NCBI GenBank assembly: GCA_020845875.1
Contig: JADLEY010000011.1
Span: 1 to 56,541, forward strand
Length of the DNA stretch: 56,541 nt
From: Candidatus Nomurabacteria bacterium
Lineage (GTDB): Bacteria; Patescibacteriota; Minisyncoccia; Phycocordibacterales; UBA9973
Direction of reading: 5' to 3'
In this document: positions 24,144 through 30,717 of the stretch, piece by piece
Numbering within the stretch: position 1 is the stretch's first letter
Layout of the letters: every line of letters starts with the position of its first letter
Translations under genes and position numbers: made by a program
The notes under the pieces: model-generated
Seen by the model: only the letters and a program-made list of their open reading frames with translations
Told to the model about the DNA's origin: nothing
The model's database searches: none

Positions 24144-24758
24144 TCATTTTGTCAAGTATCTTTTGAGAAAGCTTTTGCGATGCAGAAGGCTTAGTCCATG
24201 CCGCTCCAGTGCCTTATAGTGTGCTGCGGTGCCATACCCCTTATTTTCTCCCCAACGATAGTACGGGTAGAGTTTTGCAAAGCGCGTCATCAGTGCGTCT
24301 CGCCGCACCTTTGCAATCACCGATGCCATCGAAATGATTTGTTCTTTGCTGTCGCCTTTGATGATAGTTTGTTGCCTCGTATATTCCTTGGGGGCAAAGA
24401 GACTGCCGTCGAGACGTACTTCGCACTGCTGAGGTGTGAGTCCGAGCTGTCGGAGCACCGAGACAACACATTCGTGAATACACGGCACGATACCCTTTCT
24501 ATCTATCACTGCGGCACTGCGCGAAGCAACAGCAATGCGGATCTGCCCCTGTTTTTTCATCTGTCGAGTCCTCTTTTCCCACCGCTCTCGTGCGCTCGCC
24601 GTCATCTGCTTAGAGTCGGTAAGAAGCGCGCCGCCTTCCCGCCACTTCGCGGCTCGGTAGGCGGCGCGCGGCATCGCCACCGCACAGACATATACCGGCC
24701 CCGCTATCGGCCCCCTGCCTACTTCGTCTATGCCGATAATCCATTTTACCGATTTCAT
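24144..24758 (-). CDS. rnhB: Ribonuclease HII
   Basis: GIDEVGRGPIAGPV, DSKQ and GYGT motifs. Confidence 0.9.
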   Translation of the reverse strand: MKSVKWIIGIDEVGRGPIAGPVYVCAVAMPRAAYRAAKWREGGALLTDSKQMTASARERWEKRTRQMKKQGQIRIAVASRSAAVIDRKGIVPCIHECVVSVLRQLGLTPQQCEVRLDGSLFAPKEYTRQQTIIKGDSKEQIISMASVIAKVRRDALMTRFAKLYPYYRWGENKGYGTAAHYKALERHGLSLLHRKSFLKRYLTK

Positions 24759-24766
24759 ATATCCGT

Positions 24767-24775
24767 ACTATACCA
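24767..24775 (-). promoter_or_regulatory. Extended -10 box of rnhB overlapping the RT stop codon
   Basis: Minus strand TGGTATAGT, 8 nt upstream of ATG 24758. The RT stop TAG is at 24770->24768. Confidence 0.45.
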
Positions 24776-25778
24776 AATCACTTTGCTGTGAGCGCTCCAG
24801 TATATGTTTGGTCAAATTCCACCCATTTCCGTGCGATAGCAGACCCTTGTACGAATTCACCACGGCCTCGTCAGCAGCGTAAATGCCCGGATTGGCAAAC
24901 ATTCGCCGTTTCGTGGCAGTACGCAACACCCGATGGTGCGGGAAATGCACCCAACCAAGGAAATCAACGCCCGAGGCAAGAGTTTCTATTGAGATTTTAT
25001 TCGGGTGCATGGTAAGCCTCAGCCGATCCCACAGGAATTCCTGCATCAATGGCAATATCCGTTCAAGATAGGCACGGTCCCTAGACAGGACGGCGAAATC
25101 GTCAGCATAGCGAATATAGTGAACCGCTTTCATTTTATGCTTCATGAACTGGTCAAACTCGTTCATATAAATATTCACCAACAACTGCGAGGTGAAGTTG
25201 CCGAGCGGCAAACCAACACCAGGTGCCGATGAATGGAAACTCCCGACAATGATCGAAATCAACCAGACGATATCCCTATCCGGTATGTACCCTGCCAAGA
25301 TTTCAAGGAGTATGGTTTGATCGATATTCGCAAAGAACTTTTTGATGTCGCACTTCAGAACCCAGACGGTCTTCGTGTCATTCATTGAAACACTATTAGT
25401 GAAATGTTTAAAGCGTTGCAATGCGCGATGCGTCCCTTTTCCTTTCTGACATGATGTTGAATCAGAAATAAAAGTCCTCTCAAAAAACGGCATCAAGTTC
25501 CGATGAATTGCATGGTGCAGTAATCGATCCCGCACGCTCGCTTTATGAATGTCGCGCGGTTTCGGATCGGAAATCTTGAATGCCTGATATGCGGAATGTC
25601 GGTATGTCTTTGCAACAAGATCGCGATGCAAGGAAATAATATTTGTCATGAGGTCCCGCTCAAATTCTTGCACATCCTTGCGTGATTTTTTGCCACGCGA
25701 AAATTCCTTCCAAGCATCGAGAATATTTTCGAGTGAAATGATAGTATGGTAGGTATGTTGAAATCTAATTTTGGACAT
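24768..25778 (-). CDS. DGR-type reverse transcriptase
   Basis: GLPLGNFTSQLLVNIYMNEFD is the [I/L]GxxxSQ motif typical of DGR RTs. YIRYADDFAV is the YxDD box. About 336 aa with no maturase or endonuclease extension. Start placed at ATG 25778 (MSKIRFQHTYHTIISLENILDAW); the track ORF extends to a TTG at 25868. Confidence 0.85.
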   Translation of the reverse strand: MSKIRFQHTYHTIISLENILDAWKEFSRGKKSRKDVQEFERDLMTNIISLHRDLVAKTYRHSAYQAFKISDPKPRDIHKASVRDRLLHHAIHRNLMPFFERTFISDSTSCQKGKGTHRALQRFKHFTNSVSMNDTKTVWVLKCDIKKFFANIDQTILLEILAGYIPDRDIVWLISIIVGSFHSSAPGVGLPLGNFTSQLLVNIYMNEFDQFMKHKMKAVHYIRYADDFAVLSRDRAYLERILPLMQEFLWDRLRLTMHPNKISIETLASGVDFLGWVHFPHHRVLRTATKRRMFANPGIYAADEAVVNSYKGLLSHGNGWNLTKHILERSQQSDLV

Positions 25779-25787
25779 AGTGAGGGT

Positions 25788-25813
25788 CAGCCAGCCAGCC
25801 AGCCAGCCAGCCA
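25788..25813. repeat. Tetranucleotide microsatellite (CAGC)6CA between RT and avd
   Basis: cagccagccagccagccagccagcca read directly. It lies 10 nt upstream of the RT ATG 25778, or inside the RT ORF if the upstream TTG is used. Confidence 0.95.
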
Positions 25814-25857
25814 CAAGGACTTTACCCGTTCTAGCTAAGGTCAAGGAGGGGTATCTT

Positions 25858-26172
25858 TTGTGGTACAAGTTCTACCAAGATTTGCCAAAGTCACACAGGC
25901 ATTCACTCGGTCAACGCATCGACACGTTGTTTGTTGAAATAATAGAAGCGATATCCGCCGCAAGTTTTCTTTCCCGCGAGGAAAAGCATCCATATGTGCG
26001 CCTTGCGATCAGGAAAGCTGATACGCTGCGCTTGCTTCTATTGGTCTTATGGGAAACAAAATCCCTCGATGACAAGAAGTACCTGGCGCTTTCAGTGAAA
26101 CTGGACGAAGCCGGCAAGATGCTCGGCGGTTGGAGCGGACAGCTTACAAAACAAAACTCTCCCAAGAAATAA
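25858..26172 (+). CDS. avd: Avd-like four-helix-bundle protein (DGR accessory variability determinant family)
   Basis: Resembles the four-helix-bundle / 23S rRNA IVS-protein family (LGQRIDTLFVEIIEAI..., LDDKKYLALSVKLDEAGKMLGGW). Start proposed at TTG 25858, 8 nt after AAGGAGG (25843-25849). The track ORF begins at 25771. Confidence 0.7.
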   Translation: MWYKFYQDLPKSHRHSLGQRIDTLFVEIIEAISAASFLSREEKHPYVRLAIRKADTLRLLLLVLWETKSLDDKKYLALSVKLDEAGKMLGGWSGQLTKQNSPKK

Positions 26173-26184
26173 TTATTGGGAGAG
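26157..26184 (-). terminator. Minus-strand intrinsic terminator 13 nt downstream of TR, inside the avd 3' end
   Basis: On the minus strand: CTCTCCCAA-taattatttc-TTGGGAGAG followed by TTTTGTTTTG. There is no U-tract on the plus strand. Confidence 0.6.
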
Positions 26185-26197
26185 AAAATGAAGAGAG

Positions 26198-26323
26198 TTG
26201 CGAAACGGCAAACGCGAACCCGTTCCCACGATTCCACCTGTTGTCAGGCTTGTCATAGTACGTGTTGAGCCAACGTCCATCGTCATCACGGTTCGCGTTG
26301 AGCAAGTTCGGATCACCATCGGA
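26198..26323 (-). repeat. DGR template repeat (TR), sense on minus strand
   Basis: 126 nt, 108/126 identical to 26688-26813. Holds 30 sense-strand adenines, 6 AAC and 1 AAT codon in the VR frame. Confidence 0.9.
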
Positions 26324-26600
26324 CTGCGCGAGAGATCATCCGTGTCACCACCCTTTGAATGCTCTCAGGGCTGTATTGTATTCGGCATCTCATTCAGCAG
26401 AATGACCTACTGGGGTAATGCCCTAATATCTCGCGCCAAGTATCTTCTTTTTTGAGAAATACATGCACCACCCTACCCGAAGCCATGACCGCGGATACAC
26501 TCGATGCAAGGATACTGGTTTCGGTAGCGGAAAGCCTTGACCGTCCGCATATGCACCTACTGCCGAGGACCATTATACATTTTTTATTATGAGAAAAAAT

Positions 26601-26634
26601 TAGCCCTTGTTCCAAAATTTCGGAACAAGGGCTA
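26601..26634 (-). terminator. Intrinsic terminator / hairpin downstream of the DGR target gene
   Basis: TAGCCCTTGTTCC-8 nt-GGAACAAGGGCTA (13 bp), followed on the minus strand by ATTTTTTCTC. Confidence 0.75.
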
Positions 26635-26669
26635 AGGACTAAATTCAAAGAGCTGAAGTAATCAGCGTC

Positions 26670-27302
26670 TTAGTTTTGAGAACTAACTTGCGAAACGGCA
26701 AACGCGAACCCGAGCCCACGACCCCACCCGTCGCCAGGCTTGCCATAGCACGCGCTGAGCCAACGCCCATCGCCACCACGGTCCGCGCTGAGCAAGCTCG
26801 GACCACCATCGGAATCCTTAATTGGTTCGTGCATTGTGACGATCCAGATAAGGCCCATCGCTTTGAGACACTCGTCCGTGAATTTCTCACGAATAAGGCA
26901 AGCTATCTCAGCATTCGGTGTTTCGAAGTTTCGGTCTTCTGCGTTTTTGCGGATGTTTTTGGTGATCCGCTGGTTGTCTTCGAACAGCATGCCCTTCAGA
27001 ACGGCTACCTCGGTTGTTACGCCGGTTGTAGGTTTGAAGTCTTTTGAAAGAAGCACCTGTTTGGCATGACTGCCAACGCGGAAATCTTTCTTTTCAAGGC
27101 GGACTATCCATTCGGCACCAGTGGCACCATCGGATGTTACGGTGAAGTAAATTACTCCGTCATGTTCACGCCAGCTTTTTTCCAGTTCGGAAACCGAAGT
27201 TTCGCCGCGTAAGAATTTAAGAGCTCCGTCTTTGCCACCGAGTTTCTTCACGATGGCGTTCAGTTGGCCGGCAGTTAAGTCGGCAGATGCGAATTTTTCC
27301 AT
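26670..27302 (-). CDS. DGR target (variable) protein with C-terminal VR
   Basis: 210 aa from ATG 27302; the track ORF starts at TTG 27347. VR codes SDGGPSLLSADRGGDGRWLSACYGKPGDGWGRGLGFAFAVSQ, ending 5 codons before the stop. No signal peptide or TM helix is visible. Confidence 0.8.
   Translation of the reverse strand: MEKFASADLTAGQLNAIVKKLGGKDGALKFLRGETSVSELEKSWREHDGVIYFTVTSDGATGAEWIVRLEKKDFRVGSHAKQVLLSKDFKPTTGVTTEVAVLKGMLFEDNQRITKNIRKNAEDRNFETPNAEIACLIREKFTDECLKAMGLIWIVTMHEPIKDSDGGPSLLSADRGGDGRWLSACYGKPGDGWGRGLGFAFAVSQVSSQN
26688..26813 (-). repeat. DGR variable repeat (VR)
   Basis: Differs from TR at 18 positions, all corresponding to TR adenines. The invariant 25-nt 3' block is 26688-26712. 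Confidence 0.9.
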
Positions 27303-27458: not shown

Positions 27459-27502
27459 CTATTAAACTTAAAAGTCAATAGGCAGAAAAAGCTTGTGGAT
27501 AT

Positions 27503-27511
27503 TGCTATACT
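27503..27511 (+). promoter_or_regulatory. Extended -10 box of dnaE
   Basis: TGCTATACT, 8 nt upstream of ATG 27520. Confidence 0.5.
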
Positions 27512-27519
27512 TCCCCCAC

Positions 27520-30500
27520 ATGAGCTTCGTCCACCTCCACACGCACAGCCACTATTCCCTCCTCGACGGGCTCTCCAAAATCCCCGACCTCGTCGCCCGT
27601 GCCAAGGAGTTTGGCATGCCCGCACTCGCCCTTACCGATCACGGCGCGATGTACGGTGCGATTGAGTTTTATAAAGAATGCAAGGCGGCCGGTATCAAGC
27701 CTATTATCGGCGTCGAGGCCTACATGGCCGAGCGTACCCGTTTTGACAAAGAGCCTGGACTCGACTCTAAGCGCTACCATCTCACCCTCCTTGCCAAAAA
27801 CAACACCGGCTACAAAAACCTCATGAAAATGGTTTCTAAAGCGCATCTCGAAGGTTACTACTACAAGCCGCGCATGGATTACGACCTCTTGCGTGAGTAC
27901 GCCGAAGGCATCATCTGTCTTTCAGGCTGCCCGGGAAGCCGCTTCATCACTCACCTCAAAGCGGGAAATATCGAAGAGGCGAAAAAACTACTGAATTTTT
28001 ATATCGAACTATTCGGCAAAGACAATGTGTATGTCGAAGTGATTAACCACAAAGAAATCGACTGGTACTTGCCGCTTATTCCGACCATCGTGCAGCTAGC
28101 ACAAGAGATGGATTTGCCCATCGTCGGTACGTGGGATAGCCACTATCTCAACAAGGGGGATGCCGAGGCGCAAGACACGCTGGTGGCCATCAACATGGGC
28201 AGCATCGTCGGCGAAAACAAGATGTCGATGAAGGAGGGCGACTACTCTTTTATCAGCTCCGAGGAAGCGAAAGAGATTTTTAAAGATATTCAGGGCGCCG
28301 TCGAAAATACGCTGAAGCTCGCTGAGACAGTGGACATCGAGATCGAGTTCTCGCCGTGGCGCTTCCCTGCTTATCCGATTCCCGAGGGGTCAACGTATGA
28401 CGATGAGCTGAAGAAGGCGACGTACGAAGGTATGAAGGACATAGGCTACCCCGATACCGAAGAGACGCGGGGACGCGTTGAGTTTGAGCTTGATATTATC
28501 AAAAACAAGGGATTCTCTTCGTACTTCCTCGTAGAGGCAGACCTCGTGCAGGCAGCGCGTCGCATGGGCATTTACACCAACACCAGGGGAAGCGCCGCGG
28601 GCTCTCTCATCTCGTACCTCATGGGCATCACCACTGTAGACCCTATCAAATACAAGCTGCCGTTTGAACGCTTCCTCAACCCGCTTCGCCCGGGCATCCC
28701 CGATATCGACCTCGATATCGCCGACGACCGCAGAGACGACCTCATCATGTATGTGCGCGAGAAATACGGCATGGGCGCGGTCGCACAGATCTGTACCTTC
28801 GGTACCATGGCAGCGCGCGGTAGTGTGCGCGATGTGGCGCGCGCACTCGGCTACCCCTACACGACGGGAGACAAAATTTCTAAGATGATACCGCTGGGAA
28901 GCCAAGGCTTCCCGATGACCATCGACCACGCTCTTGAGCTCGTGCCCGAGCTCAAGGAACAGTACGACAGCGATCGTCCGACGAGAGAGATTATCGACAT
29001 GGCAAAAAAAATTGAAGGAAATGCCCGCCATATATCTATCCATGCGGCGGGGGTCGTCATCGCTCCCATCGCTGATATTACAGAGTTCACCCCCATCCAG
29101 TACGACCCGAAGGGCGAGAACAAAATCATCACCCAGTACGATATGTTCTCAGGAGGACGCGACGGTGTGGTCAACATGCCGAAGTTTGACATGCTCGGCA
29201 TCCGCAACCTGCAGTTTATCACGGGCGCTATCGAACGGATCAAAAAGATTCGCGATATCGACGTCGATATCGATGCTATTCCGCTTGATGACATCAAGGT
29301 GTTTGAGATGCTCGCGCGAGGCGAGACGGTCGGCGTCTTTCAGATGGCAGGAGGCGGCATGACGGCGTATGTGAAGGATTTGAAACCGACTACCGTGGAC
29401 GACCTCATGGCGATGGTCGCACTCTACCGCCCAGGCCCGATGGAGGTAATCCCTGAGTACATCAGACGCAAGCAGCACCCCGAGCTCATCACCTATCCTG
29501 ATCCGCGGCTCAAAGACGACCTCACGGCGTCCTACGGGCTCCTGGTGTATCAAGACGACGTGCTCATCACCGCTATCCGTCTCGCCGGCTACAGCTGGCT
29601 CGATGCCGACAAGTTCCGCAAGGCCATGGGGAAAAAGATTCCCGCAGAAATGGCAGAGCAGAAGGATAAGTTTTATAAGGGCTGCAAAGAGCACGGTGGG
29701 CTCGAGAAGAAAAAAATCGACGAGCTATGGAAGCTCATCGAGCCGTTTGCGGCGTACGGATTCAACAAGGCGCACGCGGCAAGCTACGGCATGGTGGCAT
29801 ACAAGACCGCCTACCTCAAGGCAAATTACCCGGCAGAGTATCTCACCACGTGTATGACCGCAGAAGCCGGCGATATCGAAGTCTGCAGCGAATATATAGG
29901 TGAGGCACGCCGTATGGGCTTCACCATCCTCCCGCCTGACATCAACGAGTCGTTTTCGGACTTCACTGTGGTCGTCGACGATAGCGGCCAGCCGACGAAA
30001 AACATCCGCTTTGGCCTTAACAATGTCAAAAATTTCGGCGAAGAAATCGGGAAAGCAATCATTGCCGAACGAAAAGCGCGCGGCCCATATGTATCCATCG
30101 AGGACTTTCTTGAGCGCGTCCAGCACAGAAATCTCACCAAAAAGTCTCTTGAAGCGCTCATCATGTGTGGGGCGATGGATGGGCTCGGTGAGCGAGGTCT
30201 CTTCCTCTCCAACATCGAGCGCCTGCTCGAATTTCATAAACATATCGAAAAATTTATCGGCGCCGGCGCATCGCTTTTTGACGGACTAGACTCTGCTCCC
30301 AAGAGTACACTTACTCTCGCTCCTACGGAGCCGATGCCGGCAACCCAGCGCTTTGCTCACGAAAAGGAACTCCTTGGTCTCTACCTCTCCGGCCACCCGC
30401 TGGATAGCTTCGGCGAGCAGATTGCAAAAACAAAGCAGACAATTGTCGGGCTCCTCGAAAAGAAGAATGTCCGCGGGGCGCTCCTTGTCGCTCATATCGA

Positions 30501-30717
30501 CTTCGTCAAACCGCTCATTACCAAATCAAACGCGCGCATGGCATTTGTCGGGCTGCATGACAAGACCGGCGCTATGGAAGGCGTTGTCTTCCCCGAAGTA
30601 TTCAAACAAGTCGGTGCTCTCCTCGAAGAGGGCAAAGTAACAGTACTGCAGGGAGATGTGCTCGACCGCAATGAAAAAATCGCCTTCTCCATAAAAAACC
30701 TCAAAGTGCTCTCGTAG
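27520..30717 (+). CDS. dnaE: DNA polymerase III alpha subunit
   Basis: PHP N-terminus MSFVHLHTHSHYSLLDG, polymerase core, OB fold. Start moved to ATG 27520. Confidence 0.95.
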   Translation: MSFVHLHTHSHYSLLDGLSKIPDLVARAKEFGMPALALTDHGAMYGAIEFYKECKAAGIKPIIGVEAYMAERTRFDKEPGLDSKRYHLTLLAKNNTGYKNLMKMVSKAHLEGYYYKPRMDYDLLREYAEGIICLSGCPGSRFITHLKAGNIEEAKKLLNFYIELFGKDNVYVEVINHKEIDWYLPLIPTIVQLAQEMDLPIVGTWDSHYLNKGDAEAQDTLVAINMGSIVGENKMSMKEGDYSFISSEEAKEIFKDIQGAVENTLKLAETVDIEIEFSPWRFPAYPIPEGSTYDDELKKATYEGMKDIGYPDTEETRGRVEFELDIIKNKGFSSYFLVEADLVQAARRMGIYTNTRGSAAGSLISYLMGITTVDPIKYKLPFERFLNPLRPGIPDIDLDIADDRRDDLIMYVREKYGMGAVAQICTFGTMAARGSVRDVARALGYPYTTGDKISKMIPLGSQGFPMTIDHALELVPELKEQYDSDRPTREIIDMAKKIEGNARHISIHAAGVVIAPIADITEFTPIQYDPKGENKIITQYDMFSGGRDGVVNMPKFDMLGIRNLQFITGAIERIKKIRDIDVDIDAIPLDDIKVFEMLARGETVGVFQMAGGGMTAYVKDLKPTTVDDLMAMVALYRPGPMEVIPEYIRRKQHPELITYPDPRLKDDLTASYGLLVYQDDVLITAIRLAGYSWLDADKFRKAMGKKIPAEMAEQKDKFYKGCKEHGGLEKKKIDELWKLIEPFAAYGFNKAHAASYGMVAYKTAYLKANYPAEYLTTCMTAEAGDIEVCSEYIGEARRMGFTILPPDINESFSDFTVVVDDSGQPTKNIRFGLNNVKNFGEEIGKAIIAERKARGPYVSIEDFLERVQHRNLTKKSLEALIMCGAMDGLGERGLFLSNIERLLEFHKHIEKFIGAGASLFDGLDSAPKSTLTLAPTEPMPATQRFAHEKELLGLYLSGHPLDSFGEQIAKTKQTIVGLLEKKNVRGALLVAHIDFVKPLITKSNARMAFVGLHDKTGAMEGVVFPEVFKQVGALLEEGKVTVLQGDVLDRNEKIAFSIKNLKVLS

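Follow-up and report, generated by a model that had tools for sequence, protein, structure and literature searches.

The window examined here, that is the whole stretch of 56,541 nucleotides of DNA that was analysed, carries a DGR in which avd is inverted, and the locus is best explained as a chromosomal DGR that is active and belongs to the CPR-specific Architecture B3. We hold with moderate confidence the fuller reading in which such an active B3 element would produce a discrete TR RNA of approximately 418 nt that constitutes a circularly permuted version of the BPP-1 RNA. CPR/Patescibacteria are among the largest DGR reservoirs, and to our knowledge no DGR of this group has been reconstituted. 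Should priming and stop elements indeed be located 5' of the TR, reconstitution or engineering would minimally require the 418-nt unit, as opposed to the TR plus downstream sequence as in BPP-1, and earlier predictions of CPR stop duplexes would have to be revised. A topology that is conserved while its connectivity is permuted would, if true, also provide strong independent support for a universal cis-priming architecture, as seen by cryo-EM for one phage.

Gene content and order of the locus

The genes and repeats of the locus are as follows.

24768..25778, minus strand: DGR reverse transcriptase (RT) gene, 336 aa; RVT_1 at 2.6e-23
25788..25811, no strand assigned: (CAGC)6 simple-sequence repeat in the divergent avd/RT region; candidate phase-variation switch
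25858..26172, plus strand: avd (Avd accessory protein); Pfam bAvd PF22296, 43.9 bits against a cutoff of 40
26198..26323, minus strand: TR, 126 nt with 30 adenines
26594..26635, minus strand: intrinsic terminator of the target gene, a 16-bp stem (26635 to 26600) followed by T6
26670..27302, minus strand: DGR target gene, an ORF of 210 aa with the VR at its 3' end
26688..26813, minus strand: VR, a 126-nt direct repeat of the TR with 86% identity, inside the target ORF

Every feature listed in the initial annotation was found in the sequence at the coordinates assigned to it, and the ORFs and repeats place TR, target gene and RT on the minus strand and avd on the plus strand, as it had described. 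The RT translation carries LGNFTSQ and YADD, the combination of an [I/L]GxxxSQ motif and a YADD catalytic site being what we take to be the mark of a DGR-type RT; its ATG was corrected to 25778..25776 (instead of 25781), and the exact RT protein is present in three other assemblies. The target gene, which matched no Pfam family at E<=0.01, is called at the identical length of 210 aa in the related loci L084 and L085. The plus-strand ORF, previously described as Avd-like, is related to Avd by virtue of its match to the bAvd family.

When read on the minus strand, all 18 mismatches between TR and VR fall at TR adenines. The TR of the window recurs with 100% identity in L084 and L085, and the TR unit is 100% identical across three assemblies, while the VRs of three assemblies with an identical RT vary at 26 columns, 25 of which are TR adenines. 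The VR diversifies at TR adenines in nature, and since this variation is seen between assemblies encoding an identical RT, the element is considered to be active. The locus displays a DGR-type RT, an adenine-confined TR/VR pair in the 3' end of a target gene, Avd and ongoing mutagenic homing.

Architecture B3 denotes the order TR-(avd)-RT in which avd is encoded in reverse, and comprises 90% of CPR DGRs according to Wu et al. (2018, NAR, PMC5758913); this core order and the reversal of avd are both evident from the window coordinates. Gene order and orientation are identical to those of the B3 DGRs (Wu et al. 2018; DGR clade 2 of Roux et al. 2021), namely a target gene with its VR upstream, followed by TR, inverted avd and RT, and the host group is also shared; in gene architecture the window does not differ from these DGRs and is a plain member. 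Among the related loci the TR abuts the avd stop codon, with the VR located approximately 450-500 nt upstream, and the best 80 of 561 RT relatives were, with the exception of two, from Patescibacteria-type or unclassified bacterial MAGs. The initial annotation correctly placed avd as divergent from RT and convergent with TR, and regarded this wiring as atypical; that assessment is justified relative to BPP-1 but not for CPR, where B3 is the norm, and a synteny comparison with related DGRs found avd on the opposite strand in 75 of the 75 loci that hold upstream sequence, so the layout is not unusual. Gene orientation alone is already known and is unimportant by itself. The accessible part of Wu et al. 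(2018, PMC5758913) holds no description of the leader, promoter, terminator and repeat that are reported below.

The predicted TR transcription unit

Based on sequence comparison, the TR is predicted to form a transcription unit of its own, giving rise to a discrete RNA of approximately 418 nt that would extend from ~26564 to ~26147. Its elements are listed in the order in which they would be transcribed.

26572..26579, minus strand: predicted TR-RNA promoter, extended -10 box TGTATAAT, with a putative start at ~26565-26564
26324..26564, minus strand: structured leader, 241 nt, 5' of the TR
26548-26527, minus strand: leader hairpin 1
26507-26465, minus strand: leader hairpin 2
26453-26440, minus strand: X strand AAAAAAGAAGAUAC, single-stranded and A-rich, complementary to the linker 3' of the TR
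26436-26425, minus strand: 5' strand of a 12-bp helix, pairing with 26337-26326
26421-26385, minus strand: leader hairpin following the 5' strand of the 12-bp helix
26383-26372, minus strand: conserved single strand GAAUACAAUACA of the leader
26371-26350, minus strand: leader hairpin with a GAGAG loop
26337-26326, minus strand: 3' strand of the 12-bp helix, stopping 2 nt short of the TR; candidate counterpart of the stop duplex of BPP-1
26185..26197, minus strand: linker CUCUCUUCAUUUU between TR and hairpin, 13 nt, of which UCUUCAUUU pairs with the leader X strand
26184 to 26157, minus strand: terminal hairpin CTCTCCCAATAATTATTTCTTGGGAGAG, 9-bp outer stem with five G-C pairs, -13.2 kcal/mol
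26156 to 26147, minus strand: U tract TTTTGTTTTG, directly after the terminal hairpin

The extended -10 box is situated directly past the terminator of the target gene, at a conserved position. The presence of such a terminator upstream of the TR had been noted initially and is borne out by the stem and T6 run listed above, a strict hairpin with a T run occurring at the equivalent position in 25 of the 35 relatives with a recognisable leader start. That conserved start reads GGYAGUAGGUG and is preceded in 34 of 35 loci, at a distance of 4-9 nt (mostly 6-7), by TANNNT, with the TGn extension in 20 of those 34 loci.

In an alignment of 58 loci the leader is represented by 46 pairs that are 94.7% paired, compared to 41-48% with partners slid; compensatory changes occur in 42 pairs, and covariation amounts to 0.756 as against ~0.15 when slid, with none of 500 shuffles as high. 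The 12-bp helix (helix 4) is 97.3% paired, with compensatory changes at 10 of its 12 pairs. No consistent ORF was found in the leader, and a protein-coding gene in the VR-TR gap was rejected as a candidate, the ORFs in this gap being inconsistent in strand and frame; matches to the gap were obtained on both strands, indicative of conservation at the nucleotide level. Rfam RT motifs (Weinberg et al. 2017) are structured RNAs beside RT genes, among which RT-10 corresponds to the BPP-1 spacer and is part of a DGR. The leader matched no Rfam family at gathering score, nor did any of the Rfam RT motifs reach that score in the related loci; with RT-7 (RF03028) 20 bits were obtained against a gathering score of 116.8, which does not confer membership, as only the first hairpin of RT-7 aligns, namely with leader hairpin 2 (GGUCAUGGC apex).

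At the 3' end, the 9-bp hairpin and tract (26184 to 26147) reported initially were recovered in full. The hairpin begins 13 nt past the TR end and spans positions +14 to +41, its loop contains the avd stop codon TAA (26170-26172), and together with the U tract it is antisense to the last 26 nt of avd; the suggestion that the 3' end of the TR RNA is antisense to avd therefore agrees with a predicted overlap of at least 26 nt with the avd 3' end. A covariance model of hairpin and tract matched the 56.5-kb window only once, at 26143-26195 on the minus strand (E 1.7e-5), and each related locus once, always at the avd stop codon. Hairpin and U tract occur in almost every one of the 72 loci examined, 59 of which satisfy a strict rule (a perfect 6-bp stem followed immediately by at least six T in nine). 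In the alignment fitted to the model the hairpin is 98.2% paired, with compensatory changes in 6 of 7 pairs, and the UUUUGUUU tract is conserved along with it. A G+C-containing stem-loop followed by UUUUGUUUU has the form of an intrinsic terminator, and the element is predicted to act as that of the TR RNA. A simple terminator scan did not report this hairpin, probably due to its mismatch and loop length, and the folding of TR and hairpin taken together does not surpass that of shuffled sequence (z -0.37).

The same hairpin also has the form of an Avd-binding stem-loop, being a stem of approximately 9 bp just downstream of the TR. Stem-loops of this type, as defined by Handa et al., engage the Avd pentamer by way of flipped-out bases. 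Table S3 of Handa et al. (bioRxiv 10.1101/2023.10.23.563531) lists a CPR stem-loop, CUCUCCC...GGGAGAG, located 13-34 nt after the TR, as putatively Avd-binding; the Azambacteria entry, CUCUCCCUAUCUUACGGGAGAG at 13-34 nt, and the window hairpin, CUCUCCCAAUAAUUAUUUCUUGGGAGAG at 14-41 nt, are the same element, while the consulted main-text passages and parts 1-2 of Table S3 of that work make no mention of a conserved U tract or of a terminator role. The terminal hairpin is probably both a terminator and a putative Avd-binding stem-loop. The initial annotation held that a terminator hairpin occupies the position of the BPP-1 spacer: a hairpin is certainly located there, but the notion that it is merely a terminator does not stand, since it has already been catalogued as a putative Avd-binding stem-loop.

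The earlier proposal of a short, discrete TR RNA gains comparative support from the conserved promoter and the hairpin with its U tract, although the size envisaged, approximately 0.2-0.4 kb, requires adjustment to a predicted ~418 nt because the conserved 241-nt structured leader precedes the TR. The accompanying suggestion that TR is not co-transcribed with RT is likewise favoured by the lack of RNA-level constraint in antisense avd and by a separate RT -10 box in many relatives.

Pairing around the TR and comparison with the BPP-1 RNA

The BPP-1 RNA, as presented in the consulted text of Handa et al. (bioRxiv 10.1101/2023.10.23.563531), consists of a primer strand, two nucleotides and a stop strand, between which the TR forms a loop; these are followed by a stem-loop, adenosines, a single-stranded ring and a further stem-loop. 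The two systems have in common adenine-specific TR-to-VR mutagenesis, RT and Avd, and a stem-loop directly after the TR; in both, one strand pairs beside the TR 3' end and, 2-3 nt further on, with sequence just 5' of the TR, and this strand is followed by a stem-loop, an A-rich single strand and another stem-loop. In BPP-1, however, avd, TR and brt all have the same orientation, with the primer/stop strand residing in the 140-nt spacer 3' of the TR, whereas in the window avd is inverted, the equivalent strand lies approximately 115 nt 5' of the TR in the 241-nt leader, and the predicted end of the RNA is approximately 50 nt after the TR. The window and BPP-1 RNAs share no sequence similarity, and no BPP-1 counterpart was found for hairpins 1 and 2 at the 5' end of the leader. 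A conserved structured RNA of ~140 nt with primer, stop strand and RT-binding stem-loop, as would characterise a BPP-1-type RNA, was not found 3' of the TR.

The X strand is 82.5% paired with the linker, compared to 47-59% when slid, and the mean leader-linker duplex energy is -5.29 kcal/mol within a locus versus -3.38 kcal/mol when permuted, with none of 5000 permutations as good. This helix, which joins 26453-26445 and 26194-26186 in the window, is A/U-rich, with clear covariation at its last two pairs only; pairs changed on both sides show no excess over shuffles (269/500), and the helix of the window has one A.A mismatch. Segment 26147-26197, which the initial annotation had singled out as possibly needed for priming, is conserved in that hairpin and U tract are kept across relatives and the linker co-evolves with the leader. 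The X strand is separated from the stop-like helix strand by a 3-nt gap, U-A-C, the A of which (26441; A21 in alignment A4) is invariant in 38 loci; purely by analogy, A26441 is a candidate priming adenosine.

These elements may be combined into the following model. The TR RNA would start at its own extended -10 promoter, just past the target-gene terminator, and would end at the hairpin and U tract, this terminator keeping transcription out of antisense avd while the same hairpin would act as the Avd-binding stem-loop. The 5' leader, which appears to supply the missing spacer functions, would thus take on the role of the BPP-1 3' spacer: one leader strand and the linker just 3' of the TR would form a template:primer-like duplex, and past U-A-C the same strand would form a stop-like duplex with the sequence just 5' of the TR. 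As this strand pairs on both TR flanks, the TR would loop out between adjacent helices, as it does in the BPP-1 ribonucleoprotein. The leader would then continue with a hairpin, a conserved single strand rich in A and another hairpin, matching the BPP-1 elements in their order, and it is this order together with the pairing topology that suggests a circular permutation of the BPP-1 RNA. The cDNA may be cis-primed near A26441, starting at the TR 3' boundary, while RT and avd would be expressed separately from the short divergent region that holds the hypervariable repeat.

It could be argued that the arrangement is BPP-1-like after all, the hairpin serving only to bind Avd, the RNA running through antisense avd and perhaps into RT, and the leader being accessory or regulatory. 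TR and RT do share a strand, the subgroup to which the window belongs is without an obvious RT -10 box after the repeat, and in the consulted parts of Handa et al. CPR Avd-binding stem-loops and stop duplexes are predicted from the 40 nt that precede and the 100 nt that follow the TR, with the stop duplexes drawing on downstream sequence in antisense avd. We nevertheless consider such read-through unlikely. Synonymous-site diversity in the avd body is 0.9-1.0 of expectation and collapses only at the hairpin and tract; antisense avd past these elements thus shows no constraint at synonymous sites, a result that speaks against a BPP-1-like spacer 3' of the TR, although the test senses sequence constraint rather than structure and a weakly constrained downstream element would escape it. 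The U tract, moreover, is kept whichever of the three avd frames it falls in, and strands resembling primer and stop are located upstream, with covariation. The upstream stop strand given for Azambacteria in the consulted parts of Handa et al., AAUGGGCAGU, matches the consensus sequence of leader helix 6 in its 3' arm; those authors pair sequence upstream of the TR with antisense avd, whereas here it is paired with the leader, and across 58 loci this arm covaries with a partner of its own further upstream.

The leader might instead be an independent ncRNA or a cis-regulatory element (a target 3' UTR or a regulator of TR transcription) and not part of the template RNA, as its first two hairpins are without a BPP-1 counterpart and hairpin 2 weakly resembles the RT-7 motif locally. 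This is rendered quite improbable by the terminator and -10 box between leader and target gene, by the 12-bp helix ending 2-6 nt before the TR across loci, by a leader-to-TR distance that is steady at ~213-219 nt in most loci, and by the co-evolution of one leader strand with the linker beyond the TR. We attach hardly any credence to the proposition that hairpin and T tract are a by-product of selective pressure on the C-terminal tail of Avd (KQNSP...GEK) or act mainly as the avd terminator. The 3' arm and tract are antisense to conserved KQNSP codons, but a single nucleotide motif encodes KQNSP, NKTP, KENP or other peptides depending on the locus, all three frames being represented (the U tract falling in the respective avd frames in 39, 14 and 6 loci), the Q and N codons are almost devoid of synonymous variation (0.13 and 0.04 of expectation), and the stem exhibits compensatory changes. 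The 5' arm is kept whether coding or noncoding and is conserved outside the ORF, as in the window, while the avd-strand sequence after the hairpin is A-rich, not T-rich, in most loci.

Other pairings were considered and rejected. A primer duplex of the hairpin 3' arm GGGAGAGUU with the TR end AACUCUCU fits the window and was dropped because it is lost in diverged loci such as L028 and L058; the GAGAG loop of leader helix 6 was likewise considered as a partner of the CUCUC linker, but variants showed no convincing covariation. A cross-locus test of hairpin-arm complementarity was non-discriminating, as all arms are purine-rich.

The simple repeat between avd and RT

The (CAGC)6 tract is the only repeat of its kind in the window, and a repeat is found at the avd/RT position in 72 of 76 related loci, 65 of these being poly-G (7-14 bases) and the remainder di- or tetranucleotide. 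This repeat varies in copy number: six copies are present in the window, L085 and L086, nine in L084 and eight in L001, the adjoining sequence being identical in the window, L084, L085 and L086 and different in L001; among the poly-G loci, L024 carries G8 and both L081 and L082 carry G9. A repeat in a promoter or ORF 5' end with copy-number polymorphism among close relatives has the form of a contingency locus.

Phase-variable repeats are known from the divergent promoter of Haemophilus hifA/hifB and from the poly-G/C tracts of Neisseria porA/opc. The present locus resembles these in that its short divergent control region contains a homopolymer or short tandem repeat, that the repeat type varies among orthologous loci and that the copy number varies among near-identical genomes, the likeness here being one of sequence. 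Any effect of the repeat might be on RT promoter spacing, on avd translation or on both. A phase-variable switch on RT or avd would, if true, allow cells to toggle targeted hypermutation stochastically. The joint reading, whereby the Patescibacteria DGR RNA is permuted (with a 5' leader of ~240 nt, its own promoter and a dual hairpin) and the machine is also gated by the avd/RT repeat, is put forward tentatively; such gating would place the hypermutation system itself under phase variation. The literature search, for which coverage since 2021 is incomplete, found no relevant paper linking DGRs with phase variation or homopolymeric tracts. A first metagenome pattern scan returned zero matches.

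With regard to the genes flanking the repeat, TANNNT directly follows it in 24 of 65 loci, and in 16 of those its distance to the RT start codon is exactly 7 nt; no clear RT -10 box of this kind was found in the window's own subgroup. On the other side, the avd start codon TTG at 25858 is preceded by a Shine-Dalgarno sequence, AAGGAGG, at 25843-25849, whereas gene callers begin avd at GTG 25780, in which case the (CAGC)6 repeat falls inside the ORF. The avd products as called are 130 aa in L085 and 134 aa in L084, and with the longer avd ORF the alignment to the 23S_rRNA_IVP profile reaches profile position 4.

Layout and genomic setting of the DGR

The window holds a complete diversity-generating retroelement (DGR), in which 18 of 18 differences between the template repeat (TR) and the variable repeat (VR) fall at TR adenines. 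Its features are as follows.

24768-25778, minus: reverse transcriptase (RT), with an RVT_1 match and the motifs LGNFTSQ and YADD
25788-25811: (CAGC)6 repeat between avd and RT, the sole such repeat in 56.5 kb
25858-26172, plus: accessory gene avd, its product matching Pfam bAvd above cutoff
26184-26157, minus: hairpin (-13.2 kcal/mol), 13 nt past the TR, followed by TTTTGTTTTG
26198-26323, minus: TR
26579-26572, minus: predicted -10 box, TGTATAAT
26635-26600, minus: strong terminator of the target gene
26670-27302, minus: target ORF, bearing the VR
26688-26813, minus: VR, inside the target ORF

The sequence features listed in the initial annotation were all correct, the sole correction being the RT start codon at 25778. 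The element is chromosomal, lying between RNase HII (24144-24758), which is co-oriented with RT and starts 9 nt past its stop codon, and dnaE (27493-30717), a plus-strand gene located upstream of the target ORF.

For comparison, 80 loci encoding RT relatives (the best 80 of 561; RT identity 57-94%) were assembled, all but two of which derive from Patescibacteria-type or unclassified bacterial MAGs. Of these, 75 include upstream sequence, and in every one avd runs divergently from RT on the other strand; their TR adjoins the stop codon of avd, and their VR is found on the strand of RT, approximately 450-500 nt upstream. Wu et al. 2018 (PMC5758913) named the layout TR-(avd)-RT Architecture B3, assigned 90% of their CPR set to it and stated that B3 DGRs require more than one transcription unit. 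The wiring, which had been regarded as atypical on account of the inverted avd, is thus typical of the lineage, and the earlier reading is a correct description of a known architecture.

The RT is identical in three other assemblies, and the 497-nt TR unit is identical to that of the window in both assemblies covering the region (L084 and L085), which also have the dnaE and RNase HII neighbours in common with it. The VRs of the window, L084 (1454-1579) and L085 (1466-1591) differ at 26 columns, 25 of which correspond to TR adenines, and these differences are direct evidence of DGR activity in natural populations.

Degenerate 7-8 nt tandem repeats with CTT(N)G/A occupy the interval from the VR/target stop to the target terminator (26636-26687, minus). 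Across 58 loci, the first ~90 nt after the VR contain 3.8 such motifs per 90 nt versus 0.96 in shuffles, with spacing peaking at 7-8 nt; they could constitute a recipient-site mark replacing the GC-rich cruciform of BPP-1. Group I intron matches scoring above the Rfam gathering threshold were found in the flanks of two related loci, L030 (945-1154) and L031 (5360-5612), and bear no relation to the DGR.

Conserved RNA structure on both sides of the TR

In the BPP-1 DGR, the ~140 nt past the TR hold the Avd-binding stem-loop, primer strand, stop strand and RT-binding stem-loop (Handa et al., bioRxiv 10.1101/2023.10.23.563531), whereas in the window this position is occupied by antisense avd. A set of 62 non-redundant avd homologs shows 0.9-1.0 of the expected synonymous-site diversity over the entire avd body, with a fall at the hairpin and U tract only; therefore no spacer-like constraint at the nucleotide level was found in antisense avd past these two elements.

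The hairpin and U tract themselves are present in nearly all of 72 loci examined, 59 of which satisfy a strict criterion (a perfect 6-bp stem with at least six T among the nine bases directly after it). With a covariance model each locus yields a single copy, always at the avd stop, and the fitted alignment, which leans toward structure, shows pairing in 98.2% of cells and compensatory changes in six of seven pairs. The avd stop codon, located inside the loop in the window, shifts among loci and can instead precede the hairpin on its 5' side or fall within the 5' arm. The tract GAGUUUUGUUU occurs in all three avd frames (39, 14 and 6 loci), being translated as KQNSP, NKTP, KENP and others, and synonymous diversity is 0.13 of expectation at the avd Q codon and 0.04 at the N codon. 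On this comparative evidence the hairpin and tract are evidently selected as nucleic acid, and since the sequence past the hairpin on the avd strand is A-rich, the terminator signature is that of the TR strand. The hairpin is already known from Table S3 of Handa et al., in which many CPR DGRs are given a CUCUCCC...GGGAGAG stem-loop 13-34 nt past the TR; it is labelled there as putatively Avd-binding, and its overlap with avd is flagged.

On the other side of the TR, the VR-TR gap is of near-constant length (~260-440 nt) and conserved at the nucleotide level, and no consistent ORF was found in it across the related loci. A -10 box is conserved in position 3' of the target terminator (TANNNT in 34 of 35 loci, 20 of these with a TGn extension), mostly 6-7 nt ahead of a conserved GGYAGUAGGUG. 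From this motif to the TR, an alignment of 58 loci supports a leader of six helices and 46 pairs, with 94.7% of cells paired (41-48% with slid partners), compensatory changes in 42 of the 46 pairs and a covariation score of 0.756 versus ~0.15, reached by none of 500 shuffles.

The 3' strand of a 12-bp leader helix stops 2-6 nt ahead of the TR, and immediately 5' of its 5' strand is a conserved single strand, AAAAAUGAAGAUAC, complementary to the linker UCUUCAUUU between TR and hairpin. Variants of the two covary (AAAUAAAGU / ACUUUAUUU, AAAUAAACA / UGUUUAUUU, AAAAUAACA / UGUUAUUUU); 82.5% of cells are paired versus 47-59% when slid, and own-locus duplexes average -5.29 versus -3.38 kcal/mol for permuted ones, better than 5000 of 5000 permutations. 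The helix is A/U-rich and one covariation measure is no higher than in shuffles, so that support for this putative pairing is moderate.

The two 5' leader hairpins (26527-26548 and 26465-26507, minus) share a conserved apical motif, GGUYAMGGYUU. An Rfam search of the leader and related loci returned no matching family; hairpin 2 shows a local alignment to the first RT-7 hairpin only (20 bits, E ~0.01, far under gathering), and RT-7 might represent the leader in a related clade of DGRs. Weinberg et al. had earlier speculated that RT motifs are parts of DGRs. In the leader, the helix 5 loop (26389-26417, minus) carries an extra segment of ~27 nt, CCCCAGUAGGUCAUUCUGCUGAAUGA, a variable leader expansion with counterparts only in L030 and L068 among the 58 loci.

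A proposed circularly permuted DGR RNA

We propose that one leader strand would pair directly 3' of the TR and then, past a U-A-C whose A is invariant (window position 26441), directly 5' of it, so that the TR would form a large bulge between two adjacent helices. The BPP-1 particle, as described by Handa et al., has the same arrangement of primer strand, two nucleotides and stop strand with the TR looped out, followed by a first stem-loop, adenosines, a ring of single-stranded RNA and a second stem-loop; unlike in BPP-1, the corresponding strand in the window is 5' of the TR. If the BPP-1 RNA were closed into a circle and reopened between the Avd stem-loop and the primer strand, the order found in the window would result, and a circularly permuted DGR RNA is therefore proposed. 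This RNA would be ~418 nt long (~26564 to ~26147), with its own promoter, and its terminal hairpin would serve as both Avd-binding stem-loop and terminator. Promoter, terminator function and priming site are here what we infer from sequence; the earlier suggestion that the TR is its own transcription unit gains comparative backing from the conserved -10 box, leader, and hairpin with U tract. The locus appears to have a variant DGR RNA, which may be new.

The repeat between avd and RT

The avd-RT region measures ~60-90 nt. Of 76 loci, 72 have a simple-sequence repeat in it, at the equivalent position across L001-L080 and L084-L086 (L084 and L085 encoding the identical RT): 65 carry a poly-G run (7-14 bases) and the others tetra- or dinucleotides, among them (TTGG)10, (TTCG)9, (CTGG)10, (GT)8 and (CT)11. 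The (CAGC)n repeat has six copies in the window, L085 and L086, nine in L084 and eight in L001, the adjoining sequence being identical in the first four and carrying a few substitutions in L001; one poly-G example likewise shows a one-base length difference between otherwise identical sequences. This hypervariable repeat resembles a contingency switch acting on the DGR; it is a candidate for phase-variable control of RT, avd or both.

In 16 loci TANNNT follows the repeat, with the RT start codon exactly 7 nt further on, an arrangement that would suit a location of the repeat in the promoter spacer and a leaderless mRNA for RT; the repeat is an independent hint of a separate promoter for RT.

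The start codon of avd is ambiguous (25771-25860). TTG 25858 has a strong Shine-Dalgarno sequence, and only the closest relatives share it as a start codon, while GTG 25780, 1 nt from the opposite-strand RT ATG, is favoured by profile alignment and gene callers and would have the repeat read inside avd as (SQPA)n. This longer avd ORF, with the repeat inside it, is the one that gene callers report in the window's subgroup, six and nine units being in frame and eight out of frame.
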